Below are positions 383 to 7,620 of a DNA stretch of 30,548 bases, piece by piece. The position numbers were made by a program, and so were the translations under genes. The number at the start of each line of letters is the position of its first letter. Positions within the stretch are counted from its first letter, which is position 1. The notes beneath the pieces were generated by a model. That model saw nothing but the letters and a program-made list of their open reading frames with translations. It was not told the DNA's origin and searched no databases. The DNA is from a virus (lineage: Duplodnaviria; Heunggongvirae; Uroviricota; Caudoviricetes), in IMG/VR virus record IMGVR_UViG_3300045988_118519, one strand, 5' to 3'.

Positions 383-670
383 TTAGTCCTCATCCACTTC
401 AACGCCATCTTTCAGCGTGATGCCGTGCCAATCATCAGCCCAACTGGTTAGCCCTGGCGCATCAATGCTAGGCATATAGACGCTTGCAGTGTGGTAGCCC
501 TTATCGTTATCAATGCTGGCAACGTGCTCGCCGTTGTATGCGCTCAGCGTGTCCAGGACGCTATAAAACTTTCCTCCGGCTGCCCTGAAATCCTTTACAG
601 CCTTCACAAGGCGATTCCACGCTTTTTCCTGTTCTGGCGTCAGGTCGATTAATTCCTGCAAAGTTGCCAT
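383..670 (-). CDS. Hypothetical protein, 95 aa
   Basis: ATG at 670 with GGAGAG-type RBS; acidic C-terminus; tightly packed in operon. Confidence 0.55.
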   Translation of the reverse strand: MATLQELIDLTPEQEKAWNRLVKAVKDFRAAGGKFYSVLDTLSAYNGEHVASIDNDKGYHTASVYMPSIDAPGLTSWADDWHGITLKDGVEVDED

Positions 671-671
671 A

Positions 672-1457
672 TCACTCTCCTTTGATGCGAATGCCAGCAA
701 GCCAGTTTCTTATGCCGATATATTCAGCGTTCCTGAAACCGCTTTTTACATATATAAATGGCAAGCGAAGATTGTGACCATTGGCTGCCAGGTAGTCTTT
801 ACAACCCTGTTCGGTAAAACAGCAGGTAACGAATTCATCAATATCTTTCACAGCAACGCGCCGCCATTTTTCTGGTGGCTCCCGAAAGTTTTCATGAAGT
901 AGTTCGAGACGACGACTTTGGAGTTTATTGGCTTCATTGCCATCTTCATCAACCCAGACAATCCGGTCATAGTCATAATCAGCATCAACAACGATTTCGC
1001 GCTTTTGATACACACAAAACATAGGGTCTGACGTTATATGATTGTCCTGTGTTCGAATATTTTCACCGATGATGCCAAACGAATCTGGTGCAGATTTTGT
1101 CTGCAACTCTGCTATGCGCTTACTTCCATCCGCGATTACTCCCTCGTAATACACACGCTGCTCGTTGAGTTTTGATTTTGTCTCCTCAAGCTCAACTCTC
1201 AGCTTCCCTACCGTTAGCGCAATATCCTCGTTCTCCTGGTCGCGGAGTTTGATGTATTGCTGTTTTTCGTCCAGCTCATCCAACAGCCCGGCGATAATGT
1301 CCACTTCCCGATGACGGATTTCTCGCTTAAACGCCGCTAAAGCTGCATCACAATCCTGTTCAGCGTTTGGACTGTCTGGCTTTTCCTGATACCACGCCAG
1401 AGTCGATTGATAGTTTTGTGCTGCCTTACGCAACGCCTGATAGTCAATCTCGCTCAC
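672..1457 (-). CDS. Coiled-coil protein, possibly Ea22-like, 261 aa
   Basis: GTG at 1457 preceded by AAGGAGG at 5 nt; the longer 377-aa track ORF has an implausible basic N-terminal extension; central heptad-like region LDELDEKQQYIKLRDQENEDIALTVGKLRVELEETKSKLNEQ. Confidence 0.55.
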   Translation of the reverse strand: MSEIDYQALRKAAQNYQSTLAWYQEKPDSPNAEQDCDAALAAFKREIRHREVDIIAGLLDELDEKQQYIKLRDQENEDIALTVGKLRVELEETKSKLNEQRVYYEGVIADGSKRIAELQTKSAPDSFGIIGENIRTQDNHITSDPMFCVYQKREIVVDADYDYDRIVWVDEDGNEANKLQSRRLELLHENFREPPEKWRRVAVKDIDEFVTCCFTEQGCKDYLAANGHNLRLPFIYVKSGFRNAEYIGIRNWLAGIRIKGE

Positions 1458-1692
1458 TGGTGCCTCCTTTACGGATCTGCGCTGCGATGCACGAAAAAAA
1501 AGACTCTCGCGTATGACAGTTAAGAGCTGGTGCGAACGCCGCGTTAAGAACGGCGGCATCACAGCCGTCATCAATATAGAGCGCAATTTTTTTCTCCAGG
1601 CGCGCTTTGGCTTCCTGCAACTGCATACCCCGGCACGCACGCGGGATATACTCAGCAATTTGAGCGATAGATTTTTCGTTCTGTTTAAACAT
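1444..1692 (-). CDS. Hypothetical protein, 82 aa
   Basis: ATG at 1692 with GAGGTG RBS; overlaps neighbours by a few nt. Confidence 0.4.
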   Translation of the reverse strand: MFKQNEKSIAQIAEYIPRACRGMQLQEAKARLEKKIALYIDDGCDAAVLNAAFAPALNCHTRESFFSCIAAQIRKGGTSERD

Positions 1693-1888
1693 GCTTCACC
1701 TCGATAGGCTTGATGGTATCGATCAGCAGTCGGCGGCGAGTATTTTCTGCAAAGTGGCGGCGTCCGGTTTCTTTGTGGTAAAACTCGTTTTTTCCGACGA
1801 CCCACATCCGCTTTGTCTGGTGCAGTTTTTTTACCTGCGGACCGTCTCGGGTGATAACAATTCCTGTATGAGTTTTTATCACGCTCAT
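1685..1888 (-). CDS. Hypothetical protein, 67 aa
   Basis: ATG at 1888 with GGAGA RBS; operon position after yfdS-like gene. Confidence 0.4.
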   Translation of the reverse strand: MSVIKTHTGIVITRDGPQVKKLHQTKRMWVVGKNEFYHKETGRRHFAENTRRRLLIDTIKPIEVKHV

Positions 1889-2247
1889 TTTTTATTCTCC
1901 GGTGCTTTCGGCATTACTGCCCAGTGAGTGATATTGACGTTTTCAAGGTCCCCGACCTGAAATGTCCACTGCCATTCTCCGGTTTCTTTTTGTCCCCAGG
2001 TGTACCAGAGAGAACGCCAGCCAATCAGCCAGCCTTCTCCATTAGCATCAAATAACAGAACACTTTCATTTGCTGGTGGCAGTTCAGCTGACACTGGTAT
2101 TATTTTGTTTTCCAGTGCCGCACATTTAGCTTCAAGCGCATCGAATTTACGTACCAGGTACTCAGCATTTGTTTCATTCACTTTCAGATCTCGTGGTACA
2201 CATTTCCCGCGAAGAAACCCTTCCATTTCGAAAACATTCATGCGCAT
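1885..2247 (-). CDS. yfdS: DUF551 protein, YfdS-like, 120 aa
   Basis: C-terminal ITHWAVMPKAPE resembles the DUF551 THWMPLP motif; length equals E. coli CPS-53 YfdS (120 aa) as I recall it. Confidence 0.6.
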   Translation of the reverse strand: MRMNVFEMEGFLRGKCVPRDLKVNETNAEYLVRKFDALEAKCAALENKIIPVSAELPPANESVLLFDANGEGWLIGWRSLWYTWGQKETGEWQWTFQVGDLENVNITHWAVMPKAPENKK

Positions 2248-2774
2248 GTGCGTAACTCCGATAACTCGTTAAAGCGCTCCATAAACATCCCGTAGGCATG
2301 GCTCGGAGCCAGTGGAATAACTTTGAACATTTCTGTTGCCGGGATACCTTCCAGTACTGGCCAGAAAGAGCCATCATCAAGCCCGAGATCGCGGCGTTCG
2401 GTTGCCAGCATGATGAGATCGGCATATTTCACAGGCGTGCTCATAACCGGGGGTAACCCGTATTTCTCACGGATTACGGCGTCTATTTTTTCTTCCATCC
2501 GTTTATAGTCAGGAAGAAGGCGTTTCAGTGGAGCGGGAATATCCTGGCAATACGCTTCTGTTGCATCATGCATTAACGCTTCAAAAGCAAATTCCTGCGG
2601 CACCAGCTGGCTGCAAAGCACCGCATGCTGGGCGACACTGTAGAAGTGTGAAAGATGTCCTGCAAAGCGACAGATATTTGAAAGGGAAACCGCGATATCG
2701 TTAATCACGATGTCGTCTTTATTTATCTTGTCATAATAAAAATGCTTCCCGGAAAAAGTTTTAATAAATGACAT
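2238..2774 (-). CDS. yfdR: HD-domain phosphohydrolase, YfdR-like, 178 aa
   Basis: ATG at 2774 with GGAGAA RBS; H...HD...D motifs (FAGH, ALMHDATEAY, DIP); length equals YfdR (178 aa). Confidence 0.65.
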   Translation of the reverse strand: MSFIKTFSGKHFYYDKINKDDIVINDIAVSLSNICRFAGHLSHFYSVAQHAVLCSQLVPQEFAFEALMHDATEAYCQDIPAPLKRLLPDYKRMEEKIDAVIREKYGLPPVMSTPVKYADLIMLATERRDLGLDDGSFWPVLEGIPATEMFKVIPLAPSHAYGMFMERFNELSELRTCA

Positions 2775-2868
2775 TTCGTTCTCCACTTTATATGCGCTGC
2801 ACCGCGCTGAATTCGGGTAAAAGGAATCCCGCACCATCCGGCGATTATTGAGTTAATTACGTTTCCAT

Positions 2869-2890
2869 AAATGCCCCCGCAGGGGCATTT
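2869..2890. other. Perfect 9-bp inverted repeat AAATGCCCC-cgca-GGGGCATTT between yfdQ-like and yfdR-like genes
   Basis: Read directly; no flanking U-tract on either strand. Confidence 0.5.
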
Positions 2891-2902
2891 GCAGTAATGA
2901 AA

Positions 2903-3727
2903 TCAGGCGGTGAAAGTACCAATAAAGGTTTCTACTTTGCTGTCTTTGAATTTCTCAACAAGCAGATCACGAAATTCGTTAGCCATTTCTTCCTGCACTG
3001 CTTCCAGCTGAATAATGCGCAGAACCAGTACAGGACGATCGCCAGTGATAATGCTGAGGCGTAATTTAAATGGACGTTCTTTCAGACCTTCAAACGGAAC
3101 GCATTTAAATTCAAATGCCACTGGCATAATGTCTTTGGTCTTCGCTTCGACAGACTCCATCAGGGAGCGTTTGCCGCTGAAGTCATTATCTTCAAAATCA
3201 GCGGTCTGGTTTGCTTCAATCGTGATTTTACGGACAGCCGCAGCCGCTTTTGTTGCCTGAATAGCGTCACCATTAGCATCAAAGCCCACAAGGTAGTCGG
3301 CCCAGTCTTCAATCCATTCTGCCAGTGACTTCTGGGAATGACGCTCGCCGTTAACAGACAACAGAGCAGAGAACGGTGCTGTCTTTTTCAGTTTGAGAGT
3401 GGCAGTGTTATCTGCGTGACCTGGCTCATCAATAGTACCCAGGTTAAGCACACTGACGGCACGCATATTATCGGCATCGATAAAGCAGCGGGTGCCTTCA
3501 TCTGCAAGATCTTTAGAATAACGGGTAAAGTCATCGATGCTGGCAGTGGAAAGCGCACCACGGAAACGGAAGCGATTTAAATTAAATTTTTCCAGATCAT
3601 GAATGCGGAAATTCTCAGGCAATGCCACAGCATCGGCACCAATCTTACTGATAATTTCATTAACACCCTGAGCAGAAATAAGAGCATGGATTTGATTAAT
3701 TGCGGTTGCGTCTAAGTTCTGAGACAT
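2903..3727 (-). CDS. yfdQ: DUF2303 protein, YfdQ-like, 274 aa
   Basis: Length equals CPS-53 YfdQ (274 aa); synteny with yfdP/R/S-like genes. Confidence 0.65.
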
Positions 3728-3792
3728 AATAAGTCCTCACTATATAAAGATATTCAGTGATGAGATAAATAATCAGTTAATTAAGAACGATA

Positions 3793-4155
3793 TTAATGAC
3801 CTGCTGCGCGGAGTTTTCCGTCAGGTTCACCGGCAAGAGTCAGTAATTGTCCCTGGTCTTCCTGCAGAATAGTCAGGCGACCACCGCGATTGACATACAT
3901 CGGCGTTTCGGTGGTGTCTTCTTCAGAAATTTTCCCGCGGTTAGTCGGGCGAACATATGAGAGTTTGTGTTTGATTTTCACACGGTTCTCATCAAACGGT
4001 TCGATTTCCAGGTTGAGCGAGACCTTACCTTTGGTTTTCGTGTTCATCACACCGGAAGCGACTTCACTGAGAACAGCGCCGATTTTGGTTTCAAATACGC
4101 CGCCGTCCAGCTCCCCGATAAATGCCTGCACATCAGTACTGCGTTCGCTAGCCAT
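3793..4155 (-). CDS. yfdP: Hypothetical protein, YfdP-like, 120 aa
   Basis: ATG at 4155 with GAGGAG RBS; the 182-aa track ORF extension runs through hairpins and is rejected; length equals YfdP (120 aa). Confidence 0.55.
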   Translation of the reverse strand: MASERSTDVQAFIGELDGGVFETKIGAVLSEVASGVMNTKTKGKVSLNLEIEPFDENRVKIKHKLSYVRPTNRGKISEEDTTETPMYVNRGGRLTILQEDQGQLLTLAGEPDGKLRAAGH

Positions 4156-4295
4156 TTTGCTGCTCCTCATCATATCGACCCTGCAAGGTCGGTTGGTTTC
4201 TCCACAAAACAGAGAAGAACACCTGCGGTGACTGCCGCCCGGATGGATTGGGTTATGAGCCCGTCGTCCGGTGATGCTCTTCTCTGTTTTGTAAA

Positions 4296-4769: not shown

Positions 4770-4821
4770 AAGATAAAATGAAATTGCGTAATGTGCAAGT
4801 GTTTTGTTGCGAGATATGCAA
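4770..4821 (-). promoter_or_regulatory. Candidate pL with two operator sites (OL)
   Basis: Two 15-bp sites TTGCGTAATGTGCAA (4784-4798) and TTGCGAGATATGCAA (4807-4821); minus-strand -35 TTGCAC (4793-4798), 17-bp spacer, -10 TATCTT (4770-4775). Confidence 0.5.
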
Positions 4822-4834
4822 TAGCGTGAGTAAT

Positions 4835-4857
4835 GAAAAGCCACCTTCTGGTGGCTA
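4835..4857 (-). terminator. Rho-independent terminator downstream of cI-like gene
   Basis: GCCACC-ttct-GGTGGC hairpin followed on minus strand by CUUUUC; lies 20 nt past the cI stop. Confidence 0.65.
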
Positions 4858-4877: not shown

Positions 4878-5570
4878 TTAATTGTGTCGCTTAAGGGTTT
4901 GTGACTGACTGATTAAGACCTTTCCAAAGACCATAAACCGGTGTTCGTTTTCGCTGGTAATTCCCCATTCGCGGTAAATCTGATTATCAGAAATTACCAG
5001 CAGTTTATCAGGTATCATTTGCAGTCGTTTGACGTAAATTTTATCATCAAAACCAAATACATATATACCATCCCCATCAAACTGATTGATACTGATATCA
5101 ACGAAGATGAGATCTCCTGGCTCAATGGTTGGACACATACTGTCCCCACGAACGTTGATAACTTTAATGTGATTTGCTGGTCGTCCACCAAACATCGATA
5201 CAGCATTATCAGTTCTGTATTCAATGGCATGAATCACATCAATGACATCACCGCCCTGGATAAGGCCATTTCCCGCACTGGCACTGACATCCAGCATTTC
5301 AATACGGAATACATCCTTCACCTGCGCAACATCCTCACTAATACTGTTTTTACATACAGTATTACTTTTGAGGTCTGAGGTAAAGAGATCAGCAATATCA
5401 ACACCTAAGCTCCTGGCAATATTACTCAGGGCTTGTTCAGTGAATTGTTTCTGCTTACCTGTTTCGAGGCGCGAGATATTCGCCGCATCCACTCCTATTG
5501 CTTCAGCGAGATCGGCGATTTTCATGTTCTTCGCCTGGCGAAGTTGTCTGACTCGATTTCCTATGTTCAT
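4878..5570 (-). CDS. cI-like repressor (XRE HTH plus S24 LexA-like peptidase domain), 230 aa
   Basis: N-term RVRQLRQAKNMKIADLAEAIGVDAANISRLE HTH; Ala-Gly site in SASAGNG; GDSM Ser and VKRL Lys dyad; no SD upstream of ATG (possibly leaderless). Confidence 0.9.
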   Translation of the reverse strand: MNIGNRVRQLRQAKNMKIADLAEAIGVDAANISRLETGKQKQFTEQALSNIARSLGVDIADLFTSDLKSNTVCKNSISEDVAQVKDVFRIEMLDVSASAGNGLIQGGDVIDVIHAIEYRTDNAVSMFGGRPANHIKVINVRGDSMCPTIEPGDLIFVDISINQFDGDGIYVFGFDDKIYVKRLQMIPDKLLVISDNQIYREWGITSENEHRFMVFGKVLISQSQTLKRHN

Positions 5571-5590: not shown

Positions 5591-5662
5591 TTGCGCGTTA
5601 AGCAAATCAACTTGCGCAAAATATTTGCGTGAAATAATATGCTCATCACGCAATATGTGGAG
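5591..5662. promoter_or_regulatory. OR region with candidate pR and divergent cI promoter
   Basis: TTGCGCGTTAAGCAA (5591-5605) matches the OL site pattern; palindrome CGCAAAATATTTGCG (5615-5629); -35 TTGCGC (5612-5617), 17-bp spacer, -10 TAATAT (5635-5640); GGAGG RBS before cro. Confidence 0.5.
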
Positions 5663-5928: not shown

Positions 5929-6472
5929 GCATCATTGGAAAGTGGAAAAACAACCTGAGTGGTACGTGAAAGCTGTCAGAAAAACTATCGCGGCATTGCC
6001 TGGGGGTTACGCTGAAGCTGCTGACTGGCTGGATGTAACAGAGAACGCTTTATTCAACCGCCTTCGTGCAGATGGCGATCAGATTTTCCCGCTGGGATGG
6101 GCAATGGTTTTACAGCGCGCGGCTGGCACTCACTACATTGCGGATGCTGTCGCACAGTCTGCTGGTGGGGTGTTCGTATCGCTTCCTGAAATTGAGGAAG
6201 TAGAGAACGCCGATATAAACCAGCGCCTGCTGGAAGTCATCGAACAGATCGGGAATTACTCAAAGCAGATTCGTTCGGCAATCGAAGATGGGGTCGTGGA
6301 GCCACACGAGCAGACAGCAATTAATGATGAGTTGTATCTGTCAATTTCGAAGCTCCAGGAGCATGCAGCACTGGTCTACAAAATCTTCTGCGCTCCAGAA
6401 AAGAGTGACGCCCGCGAGTGTGCAGCTCCGGGCGTCGTGGCGTTTTGTGTCTGTGGAGAAACTAACGCATGA
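5921..6472 (+). CDS. CII-like phage regulatory protein (CP76-type), 183 aa
   Basis: GTG start with AGGAGG RBS at 6 nt; position after cro; family assignment from recall. Confidence 0.55.
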   Translation: MGKHHWKVEKQPEWYVKAVRKTIAALPGGYAEAADWLDVTENALFNRLRADGDQIFPLGWAMVLQRAAGTHYIADAVAQSAGGVFVSLPEIEEVENADINQRLLEVIEQIGNYSKQIRSAIEDGVVEPHEQTAINDELYLSISKLQEHAALVYKIFCAPEKSDARECAAPGVVAFCVCGETNA

Positions 6473-6882
6473 ACAGTTTAACGGCAAATAACCGTTTGTC
6501 GCAACAGCTGGTGGTCAGTGTCGCTGAACACCTGTTGTTACGGCATGAATGCAGATTACCAAATCACTTGGCTGTAAGTAACCACAGAGAACTTTACCTG
6601 ACTGTGGGGGGCGAGTTGTGCAGGAACTTAACCGCTGGTTTCGTGACGGAAGAGGGCTTTATGTCCATGTTATTCGTTGGGAGCCAGAAACACAGCGCGT
6701 TATCTATCTTCGCAAAGACTACCCGCATGAGTGCTTTAGTCCTTTGTGGAAATTCAGGCGTGATTTTGTTGAGTGTGAAGGACCACCAGCACATTGATTC
6801 TGCCATTCCGGGACGTTACACTGTTCAGGCACCTTATAAAGCGGGTGCCGGGCGTGGAAACTCGGAATTCACCAAAGCGCAC

Positions 6883-6905
6883 AACCGCGCTCTTGCGGTT
6901 TTTTT
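6883..6905 (+). terminator. Rho-independent terminator-like hairpin AACCGC-gctctt-GCGGTT plus TTTTTTT
   Basis: Read directly; lies inside the long frame that continues into Rha. Confidence 0.5.
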
Positions 6906-7074
6906 GTGTAATGAGCAGCATTACGCCCAAATTATGGTGGGGCGTGCAGGGCCAACTTCGGTTGGGCCGGGTTCTTTGGTGACCGGTATTTCCACCCCTG
7001 TACGTCTCACCACCAATAAGGTCGTGGAAAGCCTTGGTGGTGAGTTATTAAAAATCACCAAAGAGGCTGCCATC

Positions 7075-7620
7075 ATGGCTACGATCCCAACCCTCACTCA
7101 ACCTGAAATTGCCATCGTTGATGGTCAGGCTGTTACTTCATCCCTGGCTGTTGCCAACTTCTTCTCCAAACGTCATGACGATGTACTGAAAAAGATCCGC
7201 ACGCTTGAATGCTCTGCATCATTCACTTCCCGCAATTTTTCGGCGAGTGATTACACCGATTGCACAGGCCGCAAACTACCTTGCTATCAAATAACCCGCG
7301 ACGGCTTTGCGTTTCTTGCTATGGGTTTCACGGGTAAACGTGCTGCCCAGTTCAAAGAGGCATACATCAATGCCTTTAACCAGATGGAGAAACAGCTTTC
7401 AAATCCCTCTGTACTGAGCGACGTTGCACATAACGCCAGCGTTCTCTATTCCTACATTTCATCAATTCATCAGGTCTGGCTGCAGCAGCTTTATCCTATG
7501 TTGGCAAAAGCCGAATCTCCGCTGGCTGTTAGCTTGTATGACTATATTAATGATGCTTCGGCACTGGCCTGCCTCATAAATTTGTCGCTGAACCCTTCAG
7601 AGGTAAGGGGGCGCAAATGA
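7075..7620 (+). CDS. Rha-family phage regulatory protein, 181 aa as called (the frame is open from 6469)
   Basis: IVDGQAVTSSLAVANFFSKRHDDVLKKIRTL matches the Rha N-terminal domain; ATG at 7075 with AGAGG RBS. Confidence 0.7.
   Translation: MATIPTLTQPEIAIVDGQAVTSSLAVANFFSKRHDDVLKKIRTLECSASFTSRNFSASDYTDCTGRKLPCYQITRDGFAFLAMGFTGKRAAQFKEAYINAFNQMEKQLSNPSVLSDVAHNASVLYSYISSIHQVWLQQLYPMLAKAESPLAVSLYDYINDASALACLINLSLNPSEVRGRK

Follow-up and report, generated by a model that had tools for sequence, protein, structure and literature searches.

The yfdP-yfdQ-yfdR-yfdS module of a Chi-rich lambdoid prophage of Escherichia coli and its possible role in host takeover

Background

The genes yfdP, yfdQ, yfdR and yfdS (b2359-b2362) are best known from CPS-53 (KplE1), a cryptic prophage of Escherichia coli K-12, where they lie on a single strand (NC_000913 2473604-2475873) and are followed by yfdT. 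The repressor/operator region and the leader of CPS-53 are deleted, which leaves yfdO 357 bp from yfdP. Of 5426 complete E. coli genomes, 3174 carry the block, some of them in degraded prophages like CPS-53. [quoted passage not shown]

The first of these (Noguchi & Katayama 2016, PMC4776307) concerns replication initiation. K-12 YfdR was found to bind domain I of DnaA in a Phe46-dependent manner and to compete there with DiaA and DnaB, the purified protein inhibiting the binding of both only moderately. Multicopy yfdQ and yfdR together with either yfdS or yfdT block initiation at oriC in vivo, and extracts inhibit initiation in vitro; yfdP is not required for the inhibition. The block to initiation is known with multicopy plasmids only, deletion of yfdQRST left initiation unchanged, and the authors themselves allow for an overexpression artefact. 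K-12 YfdR is also annotated as a 5'-deoxynucleotidase and, according to a later source citing Zimmerman et al. 2008, was assayed as such.

The second paper (Zheng, Casjens, Davidson, Amundsen & Smith 2025, PMC12315714) defines a "no Rec module, high Chi" class of lambdoid phages by three characters: no Rec module, a Chi density far above expectation, and a bias in Chi orientation. The trio of yfdP, yfdQ and HD phosphatase genes was already described there, and early-left trios of this class are found in LLS (gp37-39), ST64B (sb35-37), phiNP and SfV (orf29-32).

Identity of the four-gene block

The window, that is the whole stretch of 30,548 nucleotides analysed here, is 99.86% identical to a complete lambdoid prophage integrated at dusA. 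The original prediction, made from the sequence alone, had placed four consecutive minus-strand genes of 120, 274, 178 and 120 amino acids in it and named them after K-12 YfdP-YfdS. All four ORFs are present at those positions: yfdP (3793-4155), yfdQ (2903-3727, encoding a DUF2303 protein), yfdR (2238-2774, encoding an HD-domain protein) and yfdS (1885-2247), which overlaps yfdR by 10 nt. The start of yfdR is an internal ATG of a 199-aa ORF, and a Shine-Dalgarno sequence is found at that ATG only. Global alignment with b2359-b2362 confirms the names, all four proteins being orthologous to those of K-12 with 97.5-99.2% amino acid identity. YfdP shares 119 of 120 residues (99.2%), YfdQ 271 of 274 (98.9%), YfdR 174 of 178 (97.8%) and YfdS 117 of 120 (97.5%), the differences in YfdS being confined to the last residues. 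Gene order, intergenic spacing and the use of one strand are equal to those of CPS-53. The RefSeq annotation of the same DNA reads yfdP, yfdQ, yfdR and then "phage protein". None of the four proteins matches any PADLOC model of defence proteins.

An E. coli lambdoid prophage of the SfV/CPS-53/ST64B/LLS type thus carries here its yfdP-yfdQ-yfdR-yfdS module. The module is composite, being made of an obligate yfdP-yfdQ pair, the predicted HD 5'-deoxynucleotidase YfdR, and YfdS, a small Ea22/DUF551 mosaic. The ORF downstream of yfdS (orf67, 1685-1888, minus strand, 67 aa) is unrelated to yfdT, which occupies this place in CPS-53; at 15% identity it was ruled out as a yfdT gene.

The leftward early operon

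Two 15-bp palindromes, TTGCGTAATGTGCAA and TTGCGAGATATGCAA, form the left operators (4784-4821) and mark pL. The block had been described as the first of the early-left genes, and this proved correct: yfdP is the first ORF past the left operators, behind a leader of about 620 nt that holds no conserved ORF. A palindrome of the operator type also lies in the cI-cro interval (5591-5605), and the pattern TTGC-N7-GCAA occurs 5 times in the window where 1.26 matches would be expected; three of the 5 flank the repressor gene. This gene (4878-5570, minus strand) encodes a cI-type repressor with an HTH and an S24 peptidase domain (Peptidase_S24, E=5.9e-19, and HTH families) and 43% identity to HK022 cI. 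Its intrinsic terminator (4839-4856, minus strand), in which a T-run comes after a G+C-rich stem of 7 bp, sits directly upstream of the left operators. The block is the promoter-proximal part of a repressor-controlled leftward early operon, and the repressor should be the immunity gene that holds it silent in the lysogen.

Further along the same strand, orf67 is followed by orf82 (1444-1692), an Ead/Ea22-like gene (672-1457) and orf95 (383-670). Throughout this remainder of the operon in the window (383-1888), Ead_Ea22 is the only Pfam match and all PHROG matches are of "unknown function"; in agreement with this, RefSeq lists no recombination protein for the corresponding part of the 99.86%-identical prophage.

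A structured RNA in the leader

The pL leader contains a structured RNA element just upstream of yfdP (4204-4292, minus strand), with a 24-bp outer stem around a three-way junction. Of its two inner hairpins, P2 (4239-4271) bears GGGCUCAUAACCC at 4250-4262, and P3 spans 4225-4238. RNAfold gives -70.4 kcal/mol with z=-4.2, and variants of the element show compensatory pairs and zero broken pairs. The element shares 85% nucleotide identity with the leader of ST64B, against only about 57-60% for the flanking proteins. Within the element, CGGGCUCAUAACCC is an exact match to 14 nt of the anticodon arm of E. coli tRNA-fMet. The element is a conserved three-way-junction RNA, undescribed before and reported here as new, in which a hairpin copies the initiator-tRNA anticodon stem-loop. 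Up to E=5 the only Rfam match was to a snoRNA and due to chance, ARAGORN reported 0 tRNA genes over the whole window, and the window holds no second copy of the element. An intrinsic terminator was ruled out, as a U-run is missing after the stem on both strands. The element is a candidate for a new cis-regulatory or decoy RNA with tRNA-fMet-like character.

YfdR and YfdS

The HD signature read from the third gene was confirmed by alignment. Residues H50, H69-D70, E73, D78 and D119 are invariant among this protein, K-12 YfdR, gp32 of Pseudomonas phage pAN and K-12 YfbR, a 5'-deoxynucleotidase, and they align also with Atu1052 (PDB 2gz4, E=5.6e-14), so that the HD fold signature and all metal and catalytic residues are held in common with YfbR and Atu1052. 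The protein also matches PHROG 318 (E=1.7e-109), a family annotated as "deoxyribonucleoside 5' monophosphate phosphatase". Identity to YfbR, however, is only 22%. The Pfam YfbR-like/HD_3 model (PF12917) scores 24.3 bits, just below its cut-off of 25.9, and the sole NCBIfam match, to the YfbR equivalog NF003009, is sub-threshold at 19.9 against a cut-off of 122 bits. Since the identity is low and the protein falls below both curated cut-offs, YfdR belongs to a separate HD subfamily, related to the YfbR family but rejected as a member of it and as a YfbR equivalog. It is predicted to be an HD-domain 5'-deoxynucleotidase by its identity to the K-12 orthologue, from which it differs at 4 of 178 residues. 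YfdR-like HD proteins are found in 333 phage records from many other taxa, jumbo phages included.

YfdS is a mosaic of an Ea22/Ead-type N-terminal segment and a DUF551 C-terminal domain. Over its first 45 or so residues it matches the Ead/Ea22/EaE proteins that HK022, HK106 and Stx phages encode. The DUF551-like C-terminus foreseen for the fourth gene was recovered by PF04448 by a small margin (22.2 bits against a cut-off of 22.0) over residues 50-117, covering profile positions 3-68 of 68. Of 224 phage records with a match to YfdS, only 41 match it over the full length. Domain portability has been discussed in PMC10834534.

The YfdP-YfdQ pair

YfdP matches PHROG 204 (E=1.2e-49). Pfam PF27127 is precomputed on its 99%-identical cluster representative P0121 and on all 120 listed homologues, and the lack of any match in our local Pfam copy apparently reflects a copy without the PF27127 model. 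YfdQ matches DUF2303 (PF10065) over profile positions 2-269 of 269 (E=1.2e-92; 310.4 bits against a cut-off of 26.6) and PHROG 210 (E=1.9e-120). A YfdQ homologue has been solved as an assembly of 36 chains (PDB 9o7m, E=5.8e-45), its sequence being 93-99% identical to proteins of CP2-like Xanthomonas/Xylella phages.

Both proteins are without an informative fold neighbour. The AF2 model of YfdQ (pLDDT 76) has no full-length fold neighbour in the two fold libraries, which do not include 9o7m, and Foldseek against the PDB returned nothing usable for it, the top match having E=0.045 and TM<0.2; a profile search of PDB sequences from the YfdP alignment gave zero matches. Profile-profile comparison found no kinship between the two proteins (hhalign probability 0.1). 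A HMMER scan of 1.84 billion representatives revealed no Rosetta-stone fusion among the best 150 YfdQ matches. Almost all of these consist of one domain and measure about 250-300 aa; a few are shorter and represent partial sequences.

The two genes travel together. yfdP matches 180 phage records and yfdQ 184, with an identical taxon breakdown, and yfdP lies upstream of yfdQ wherever the order was examined: in four of four distant phages, in PA2, in ST64B and in five of five informative metagenome representatives, as well as in 80 of 80 E. coli viral contigs. This deep synteny was taken from GenBank phages and metagenome representatives; the scan of IMG/VR with the YfdQ alignment returned near-identical E. 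coli loci only and was used for local mosaicism. YfdP-YfdQ is thus an obligate gene pair across gammaproteobacterial phages, a result new to this study, and its strict pairing in distant phages marks a large family pair without known biochemistry. The pair often lies beside complete Rec modules. In the Stx2a phage PA2, yfdP-yfdQ directly follows a complete Gam-RecT-Exo-SSB module, and in Xanthomonas phage CP2 it adjoins Erf and YqaJ; the pair therefore does not replace Rec modules.

Absence of a Rec module and abundance of Chi

[quoted passage not shown] No Exo-, Bet-, RecT-, Erf-, Gam- or Abc2-type protein was found by Pfam and PHROG searches among the early-left ORFs of the window, and the same searches picked up both ERF and YqaJ when applied to other phages. 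Since the operon runs past the end of the window, its remaining part was read from the 99.86%-identical prophage; no Rec-type protein is encoded there either, that part holding only a PrtN-like protein besides an Rv2179c-like 3'-5' exonuclease. The absence of exo/bet/gam-like genes noted in the original prediction is in this way borne out in both the window and the complete relative.

The Chi sequence, GCTGGTGG, is the commonest octamer in the window. It occurs at 21 sites, one per 1.45 kb, where 1.16 +/- 1.06 are expected, and 0 of 100 shuffles reach 21. Seventeen of the 21 lie on the plus strand, the direction of the late genes. That the block sits where lambda has its recombination and takeover genes holds true as a matter of position, and does not imply functional replacement of the Red system: 21 Chi sites against some 1.2 expected explain the lack of Rec genes better than replacement by the block. 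Lack of a Rec module together with Chi enrichment assigns the phage to the "no Rec module, high Chi" lambdoid class, and growth enhanced by RecBCD, the functional type of LLS, is predicted from the Chi sites.

Possible functions of the block

We consider it the best explanation, with a probability of roughly 0.55, that this is a yfdPQRS module serving a DnaA-directed takeover of the host in a phage that uses RecBCD through Chi. Upon induction or infection the operon would be derepressed. YfdR would then bind domain I of host DnaA at the Phe46 surface, which is also used by DiaA and the DnaB helicase, and YfdR, YfdQ and YfdS would together hold back new initiations at oriC. Such an arrest would amount to host takeover, leaving DnaB and precursors to the phage replicon, and a weak dNMP phosphatase activity of YfdR may also adjust nucleotide pools. 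The block itself supplies no recombination, and the Chi-loaded phage, having no Rec module, would follow the published strategy of relying on the RecBCD of the host. That YfdR had been linked to DnaA and replication initiation in the original prediction is correct, the link being real and published (PMC4776307), and the window carries the complete minimal genetic set defined in K-12, namely yfdQ, yfdR and yfdS. The takeover role is the most likely one and is drawn from experiments on K-12 proteins of 97.5-99% identity. The pair in PA2 has no adjacent YfdR, and YfdR-like enzymes occur without the pair; the three units of the block therefore need not share one pathway. YfdP, moreover, is conserved as tightly as YfdQ but is dispensable for the DnaA phenotype, so the primary function of the pair probably lies elsewhere. 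A tentative and rather doubtful suggestion is that YfdP-YfdQ is a two-protein machine acting on DNA replication or repair intermediates, with expression gated by the leader RNA in this lineage. It draws on the size of the family (some 1,800 clusters when grouped at 50% identity, the genes always standing in the order P-Q), on the conservation of R55, H103, E139, D140, R165 and R222, on the 36-chain homologue and on the want of an informative fold neighbour.

Three other explanations were weighed against the takeover reading. Manipulation of nucleotide pools could be the primary role, with YfdR acting as a dNMP phosphatase, the pair and YfdS being unrelated neighbours and DnaA binding incidental. 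The intact H...HD...D catalytic residues and the reported assay of the K-12 orthologue (Zimmerman et al. 2008, as cited) fit this, and the presence of YfdR-like HD enzymes in unrelated phage contexts is hard to square with a role specific to E. coli DnaA. A replicating phage, however, has no obvious use for the dephosphorylation of dNMPs, and the DnaA interaction is specific, depending on Phe46, with an in vivo phenotype (PMC4776307). This explanation is unlikely. An unrecognised recombination or RecBCD-handling module, made of YfdP and YfdQ with or without YfdR, is distinctly improbable. The pair does lie in the early-left operon of a phage without a Rec module, distant phages embed it among SSB, DEDD/Rv2179c-like 3'-5' exonuclease, YqaJ exonuclease, Erf and DUF1351 genes, a 36-chain assembly would fit a filament or ring, and deletion of yfdQ is reported to confer weak MMS sensitivity. 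Against this stand its coexistence with complete Rec modules in PA2 and with Erf and YqaJ in CP2, the like conclusion of Zheng et al. for ArgO145 (PMC12315714), and the Chi enrichment, which argues that RecBCD is used and not inhibited.

It seems less probable again that the block is retained because it helps the lysogen, through tolerance of peroxide, acid or alkylation, and not because it serves lytic growth. Deletion of CPS-53, yfdQ or yfdS is reported to raise H2O2 sensitivity, and deletion of yfdQ to raise MMS sensitivity (Wang et al. 2010, Rooney et al. 2009), and the many E. coli genomes with the block include CPS-53, whose repressor region is lost. The phenotypes as reported are weak, however; the operators and intact cI-type repressor found here should keep the block silent in a lysogen, and the pair is equally conserved in Vibrio and Xanthomonas phages in whose examined regions neither an integrase nor a repressor is annotated.

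Comparison with known systems

The layout is that of the LLS class: cI, long leader, yfdP, yfdQ, HD phosphatase gene, Ea22-like genes, Rv2179c-like exonuclease gene and xis/int. The numbers of Chi sites are also close, LLS having 23, of which 20 are oriented, against 21 with 17 on one strand in the window. The block thus places the prophage in a Chi-rich, RecBCD-dependent class. The proteins of ST64B are about 57-67% identical to those of the window, and ST64B differs in that a YfdS-type gene is missing after the HD gene. CPS-53 is far closer in its four proteins, but unlike it the window has cI, operators and leader intact. An intact prophage that carries yfdQ, yfdR and yfdS behind repressor and operator is a natural system in which the DnaA takeover can be tested.

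The put antiterminator RNAs of HK022 resemble the leader element in being structured early-operon RNAs with adjacent stem-loops, and the phage encodes a cI of the HK022 type and lacks an N gene in the interval from pL to the first ORF. The HK022 pL/put region, however, shows no sequence similarity to the element. The put RNAs lie directly after pL and number two, whereas the element is present as one copy, some 500 nt downstream from the operators, and forms a three-way junction closed by its 24-bp stem.

Lambda P and Bacillus subtilis SirA are, like YfdR, small mobile-element or developmental proteins that bind DnaA and prevent initiation at oriC. On domain I, SirA and YfdR share one surface, through Phe49 in B. 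subtilis and Phe46 in E. coli, whereas lambda P binds domain III and is itself a helicase loader (PMC4776307). Neither protein is related to YfdR in sequence or in fold. Unlike both, YfdR is an HD phosphohydrolase by family, and its effect in vivo needs YfdQ together with YfdS or YfdT.

Identity and position of the yfdPQRS block

The block at 1885-4155 consists of four successive minus-strand genes: yfdP (3793-4155, 120 aa), yfdQ (2903-3727, 274 aa), yfdR (2238-2774, 178 aa) and yfdS (1885-2247, 120 aa), whose lengths are exactly those predicted. The proposed kinship to K-12 YfdP-S is confirmed by global alignment with the proteins of the annotated CPS-53 region of MG1655, with identities of 99.2% for YfdP, 98.9% for YfdQ, 97.8% for YfdR and 97.5% for YfdS. 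The 178-aa start of yfdR is an internal ATG within a 199-aa ORF and is the sole ATG there with a Shine-Dalgarno sequence upstream; Shine-Dalgarno sequences also precede the starts of yfdP, yfdQ and yfdS. Pfam identifies DUF2303 in YfdQ (E=1.2e-92) and places DUF551 in the C-terminal half of YfdS, in agreement with the DUF551-like C-terminus claimed for the fourth gene. The YfbR-like/HD match in YfdR is sub-threshold; the HD signature claimed for this protein is found in H50, H69-D70, E73, D78 and D119, which align with YfbR and Atu1052 (PDB 2gz4). Because similarity to YfdP-S is present and the HD residues align, the original prediction stands. The 2.9-kb block is present in 3174 of 5426 complete E. 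coli genomes (megablast), and yfdPQRS is already known as a widespread module that has been both annotated and published. Any remaining novelty would lie in the yfdP-yfdQ pair and the leader RNA rather than in what the block is or where it sits.

Differences between YfdS and its K-12 counterpart are confined to the last residues, ENKK versus EAGA (1885-1897, the 3' end of yfdS), beyond which the sequence changes to an unrelated 67-aa basic ORF (pI 10.8; 1685-1888). A mosaic junction therefore coincides precisely with the 3' end of yfdS. The candidacy of yfdT as the next gene was rejected, 1685-1888 being unrelated to it.

The entire 30,548-nt window matches a prophage of E. coli SCU-484 in a single collinear piece (99.86% identity), integrated beside dusA, between dusA and zur. 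A cI-type HTH/S24 repressor is encoded at 4878-5570, with an intrinsic terminator at 4839-4856. The left operators, two 15-bp palindromes of the type TTGCG-N5-NGCAA (4784-4821), follow directly after this terminator, and a palindrome of the same type (5591-5605) lies between the repressor and a cro-like gene. These candidate operators on either side of the repressor gene, TTGCGTAATGTGCAA, TTGCGAGATATGCAA and TTGCGCGTTAAGCAA, would define OL and OR of the prophage's immunity type. Going leftward from the operators, yfdP is reached after about 620 nt as the first ORF preceded by a ribosome-binding site. Conservation with phage ST64B is limited to the two ends of this interval, which therefore contains no conserved ORF. 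The block thus supplies the first early-left genes, as had been proposed.

Rfam matches to isrK (62.5 bits, 6829-6905, plus strand) and C4 antisense RNA (83.6 bits, 6930-7017, plus strand) fall within ORF 6469-7620, a Rha family protein of 383 aa in the RefSeq annotation. A non-coding regulatory region of the P1 c4/ant type therefore probably occupies the 5' half of this ORF, and the real Rha/antirepressor gene is probably shorter.

The yfdP-yfdQ pair within a composite block

Judged by the distribution of its members, the yfdPQRS block is composite. Among 50,697 phage records searched by tblastn, YfdQ is found in 184 and YfdP in 180, with almost the same taxon breakdown (Escherichia, Stx phages, Vibrio, Xanthomonas, Salmonella, Shigella and Pseudomonas). 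A YfdP homologue is located directly upstream of YfdQ in Xanthomonas CP2, Vibrio 24E30.2, Pseudomonas pAN and Vibrio VvAW1 (hmmsearch E 1e-25 to 1e-38), and likewise in PA2 and ST64B. The same order is seen in 80 of 80 E. coli viral contigs and in all five metagenome representatives with upstream DNA present, one of which has a single intervening gene. YfdR-like HD proteins occur in 333 phage records, spread over many other taxa, and PA2 carries the pair with no such protein adjoining. YfdS is itself a mosaic, with a common Ea22/Ead N-terminus (residues 1-45) and DUF551 in the remainder, and is covered fully in only 41 of 224 matching records; the portability of DUF551 has been noted (PMC10834534).

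In distant phages the pair is accompanied by genes for SSB, DEDD exonuclease, YqaJ exonuclease, Erf and DUF1351. Substitution of the pair for a Rec module was considered and rejected, as in PA2 it directly follows Gam-RecT-Exo-SSB. Its place among DNA-transaction genes, and after a full module in PA2, indicates that it accompanies such genes and does not replace a Rec module.

A DEDD 3'-5' exonuclease (Rv2179c-like or DnaQ-like) recurs within the operon of the pair, often adjoining it, in enterobacterial, Vibrio and Pseudomonas phages and one metagenome contig. Among the loci outside the window, it is encoded at 41107-41679 of L003 (beyond the window's left end), 3980-4537 of L005 (Vibrio phage 24E30.2), 7212-7898 of L006, 3218-3841 of L007, 8765-9334 of L090 and 448-1074 of L213. 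Vibrio phage 24E30.2 also encodes, two genes downstream of yfdP-yfdQ-ssb, a protein with a Tad2-like (Thoeris anti-defence 2-like) domain (L005 6712-7221, E=4.4e-22).

At 50% identity the YfdQ family amounts to about 1,777 clusters; of the best 150 hits, nearly all consist of a single domain and are about 250-300 aa long. Across 63 diverse members, E45, R55, T60, Y69, H103, Q131, E139, D140, R165 and R222 are near-invariant polar residues. Enterobacterales YfdQ proteins possess two invariant motifs, RxRFRG (residues 51-56) and GT..PGHADN (96-106), of which R55, G96, P101 and H103 are still nearly invariant in the whole family. The conserved motifs hint at a putative binding or catalytic site. 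AF2 models of YfdQ (pLDDT 76) and YfdP (69) have no informative neighbour in the PDB, and the two proteins are related neither to each other nor to known defence proteins. A homologue from a CP2-like Xanthomonas phage has been solved as PDB 9o7m, apparently unpublished, in which 36 chains bear the name 'YfdQ Protein'. In sequence it shares 93-99% identity with the YfdQ homologue encoded by CP2-like Xanthomonas/Xylella phages and about 38% with YfdQ of the window. The protein chains of the entry are listed from C onward, and a different molecule may account for A and B.

A structured RNA in the pL leader

Shortly before yfdP, the pL leader contains a conserved structured RNA, not described before (4204-4292, minus strand, core 4242-4265). 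The transcribed strand (4292-4204) is predicted to form a 24-bp stem closing a three-way junction, with a folding energy of -70 kcal/mol in a 181-nt context (z=-4.2). One arm ends in GGGCUCAUAACCC, which with the preceding C exactly reproduces 14 nt of the anticodon stem-loop of the E. coli initiator, tRNA-fMet. Over its final 100 nt the leader shares 85% identity with ST64B, against about 57-60% for the neighbouring proteins.

The element is single-copy within the window, and at least 120 IMG/VR contigs carry its 21-nt core unchanged; among the matches listed, 83 distinct variants can be sorted into three classes. Two of these, A and B, represent pL leaders, and their outer stems differ by three compensatory pairs, with none broken. 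Class C is found in Klebsiella phages, downstream of gene Q and directly behind tRNA genes; its closing stem is 7 bp long, N-CCA follows in most cases, and its third hairpin covaries. In the lower stem of the anticodon-like arm, too, there is covariation between classes. The stems are supported by covariation. Past the element, class A sequences diverge into different first genes, which assigns it to the leader and not to yfdP. Class C looks like a D-arm-less tRNA with encoded CCA. The element belongs to no Rfam family, is not called as a tRNA by ARAGORN and has no similarity to the HK022 put region. It may serve as a processing site, as an RNA for antitermination or translational control, or as a tRNA mimic or decoy.

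Host replication initiation

[quoted passage not shown] Extracts inhibited oriC replication in vitro; deletion gave no initiation phenotype, and the authors allowed for an overexpression artefact (PMC4776307). The nucleotide affinity of YfdR is weak relative to that of YfbR (Zimmerman et al. 2008, as cited in PMC4776307). As the window encodes the complete minimal set, each protein differing from K-12 at 3-4 residues, the most likely function of the block is inhibition of host initiation, which it would exert during lytic development.

Recombination genes and Chi sites

Early-left ORFs of the window have no match to the Exo/YqaJ, Bet/RecT/Erf/Sak, Gam/Abc2 or SSB families. Since the window ends within the operon, the remainder was checked in the near-identical SCU-484 prophage, where it encodes unknown proteins, an Rv2179c-like DEDD 3'-5' exonuclease and a PrtN-like protein. 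The claim that no exo/bet/gam-like genes are visible therefore holds in both, and the result carries weight because the same searches recognised ERF and YqaJ in other phages. The yfdR/yfdQ/yfdP trio has been named as common in early-left operons, and its action as a hidden recombinase was judged unlikely because ArgO145 carries a full Rec module besides the trio (Zheng, Casjens, Davidson, Amundsen and Smith, Genome Res 2025, PMC12315714).

Chi (GCTGGTGG) outnumbers every other octamer in the window, with 21 copies over its whole length against 1.16 expected and at most 4 in each of 100 shuffled windows. Sites include those at 2072, 6161, 8360 and 21498, and 17 of the 21 are on the late-gene strand. 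This Rec-less, Chi-rich make-up is the published 'no Rec module, high Chi' signature of lambdoid phages, as in phage LLS and 71 others, which use Chi and host RecBCD instead (Zheng et al. 2025, PMC12315714).
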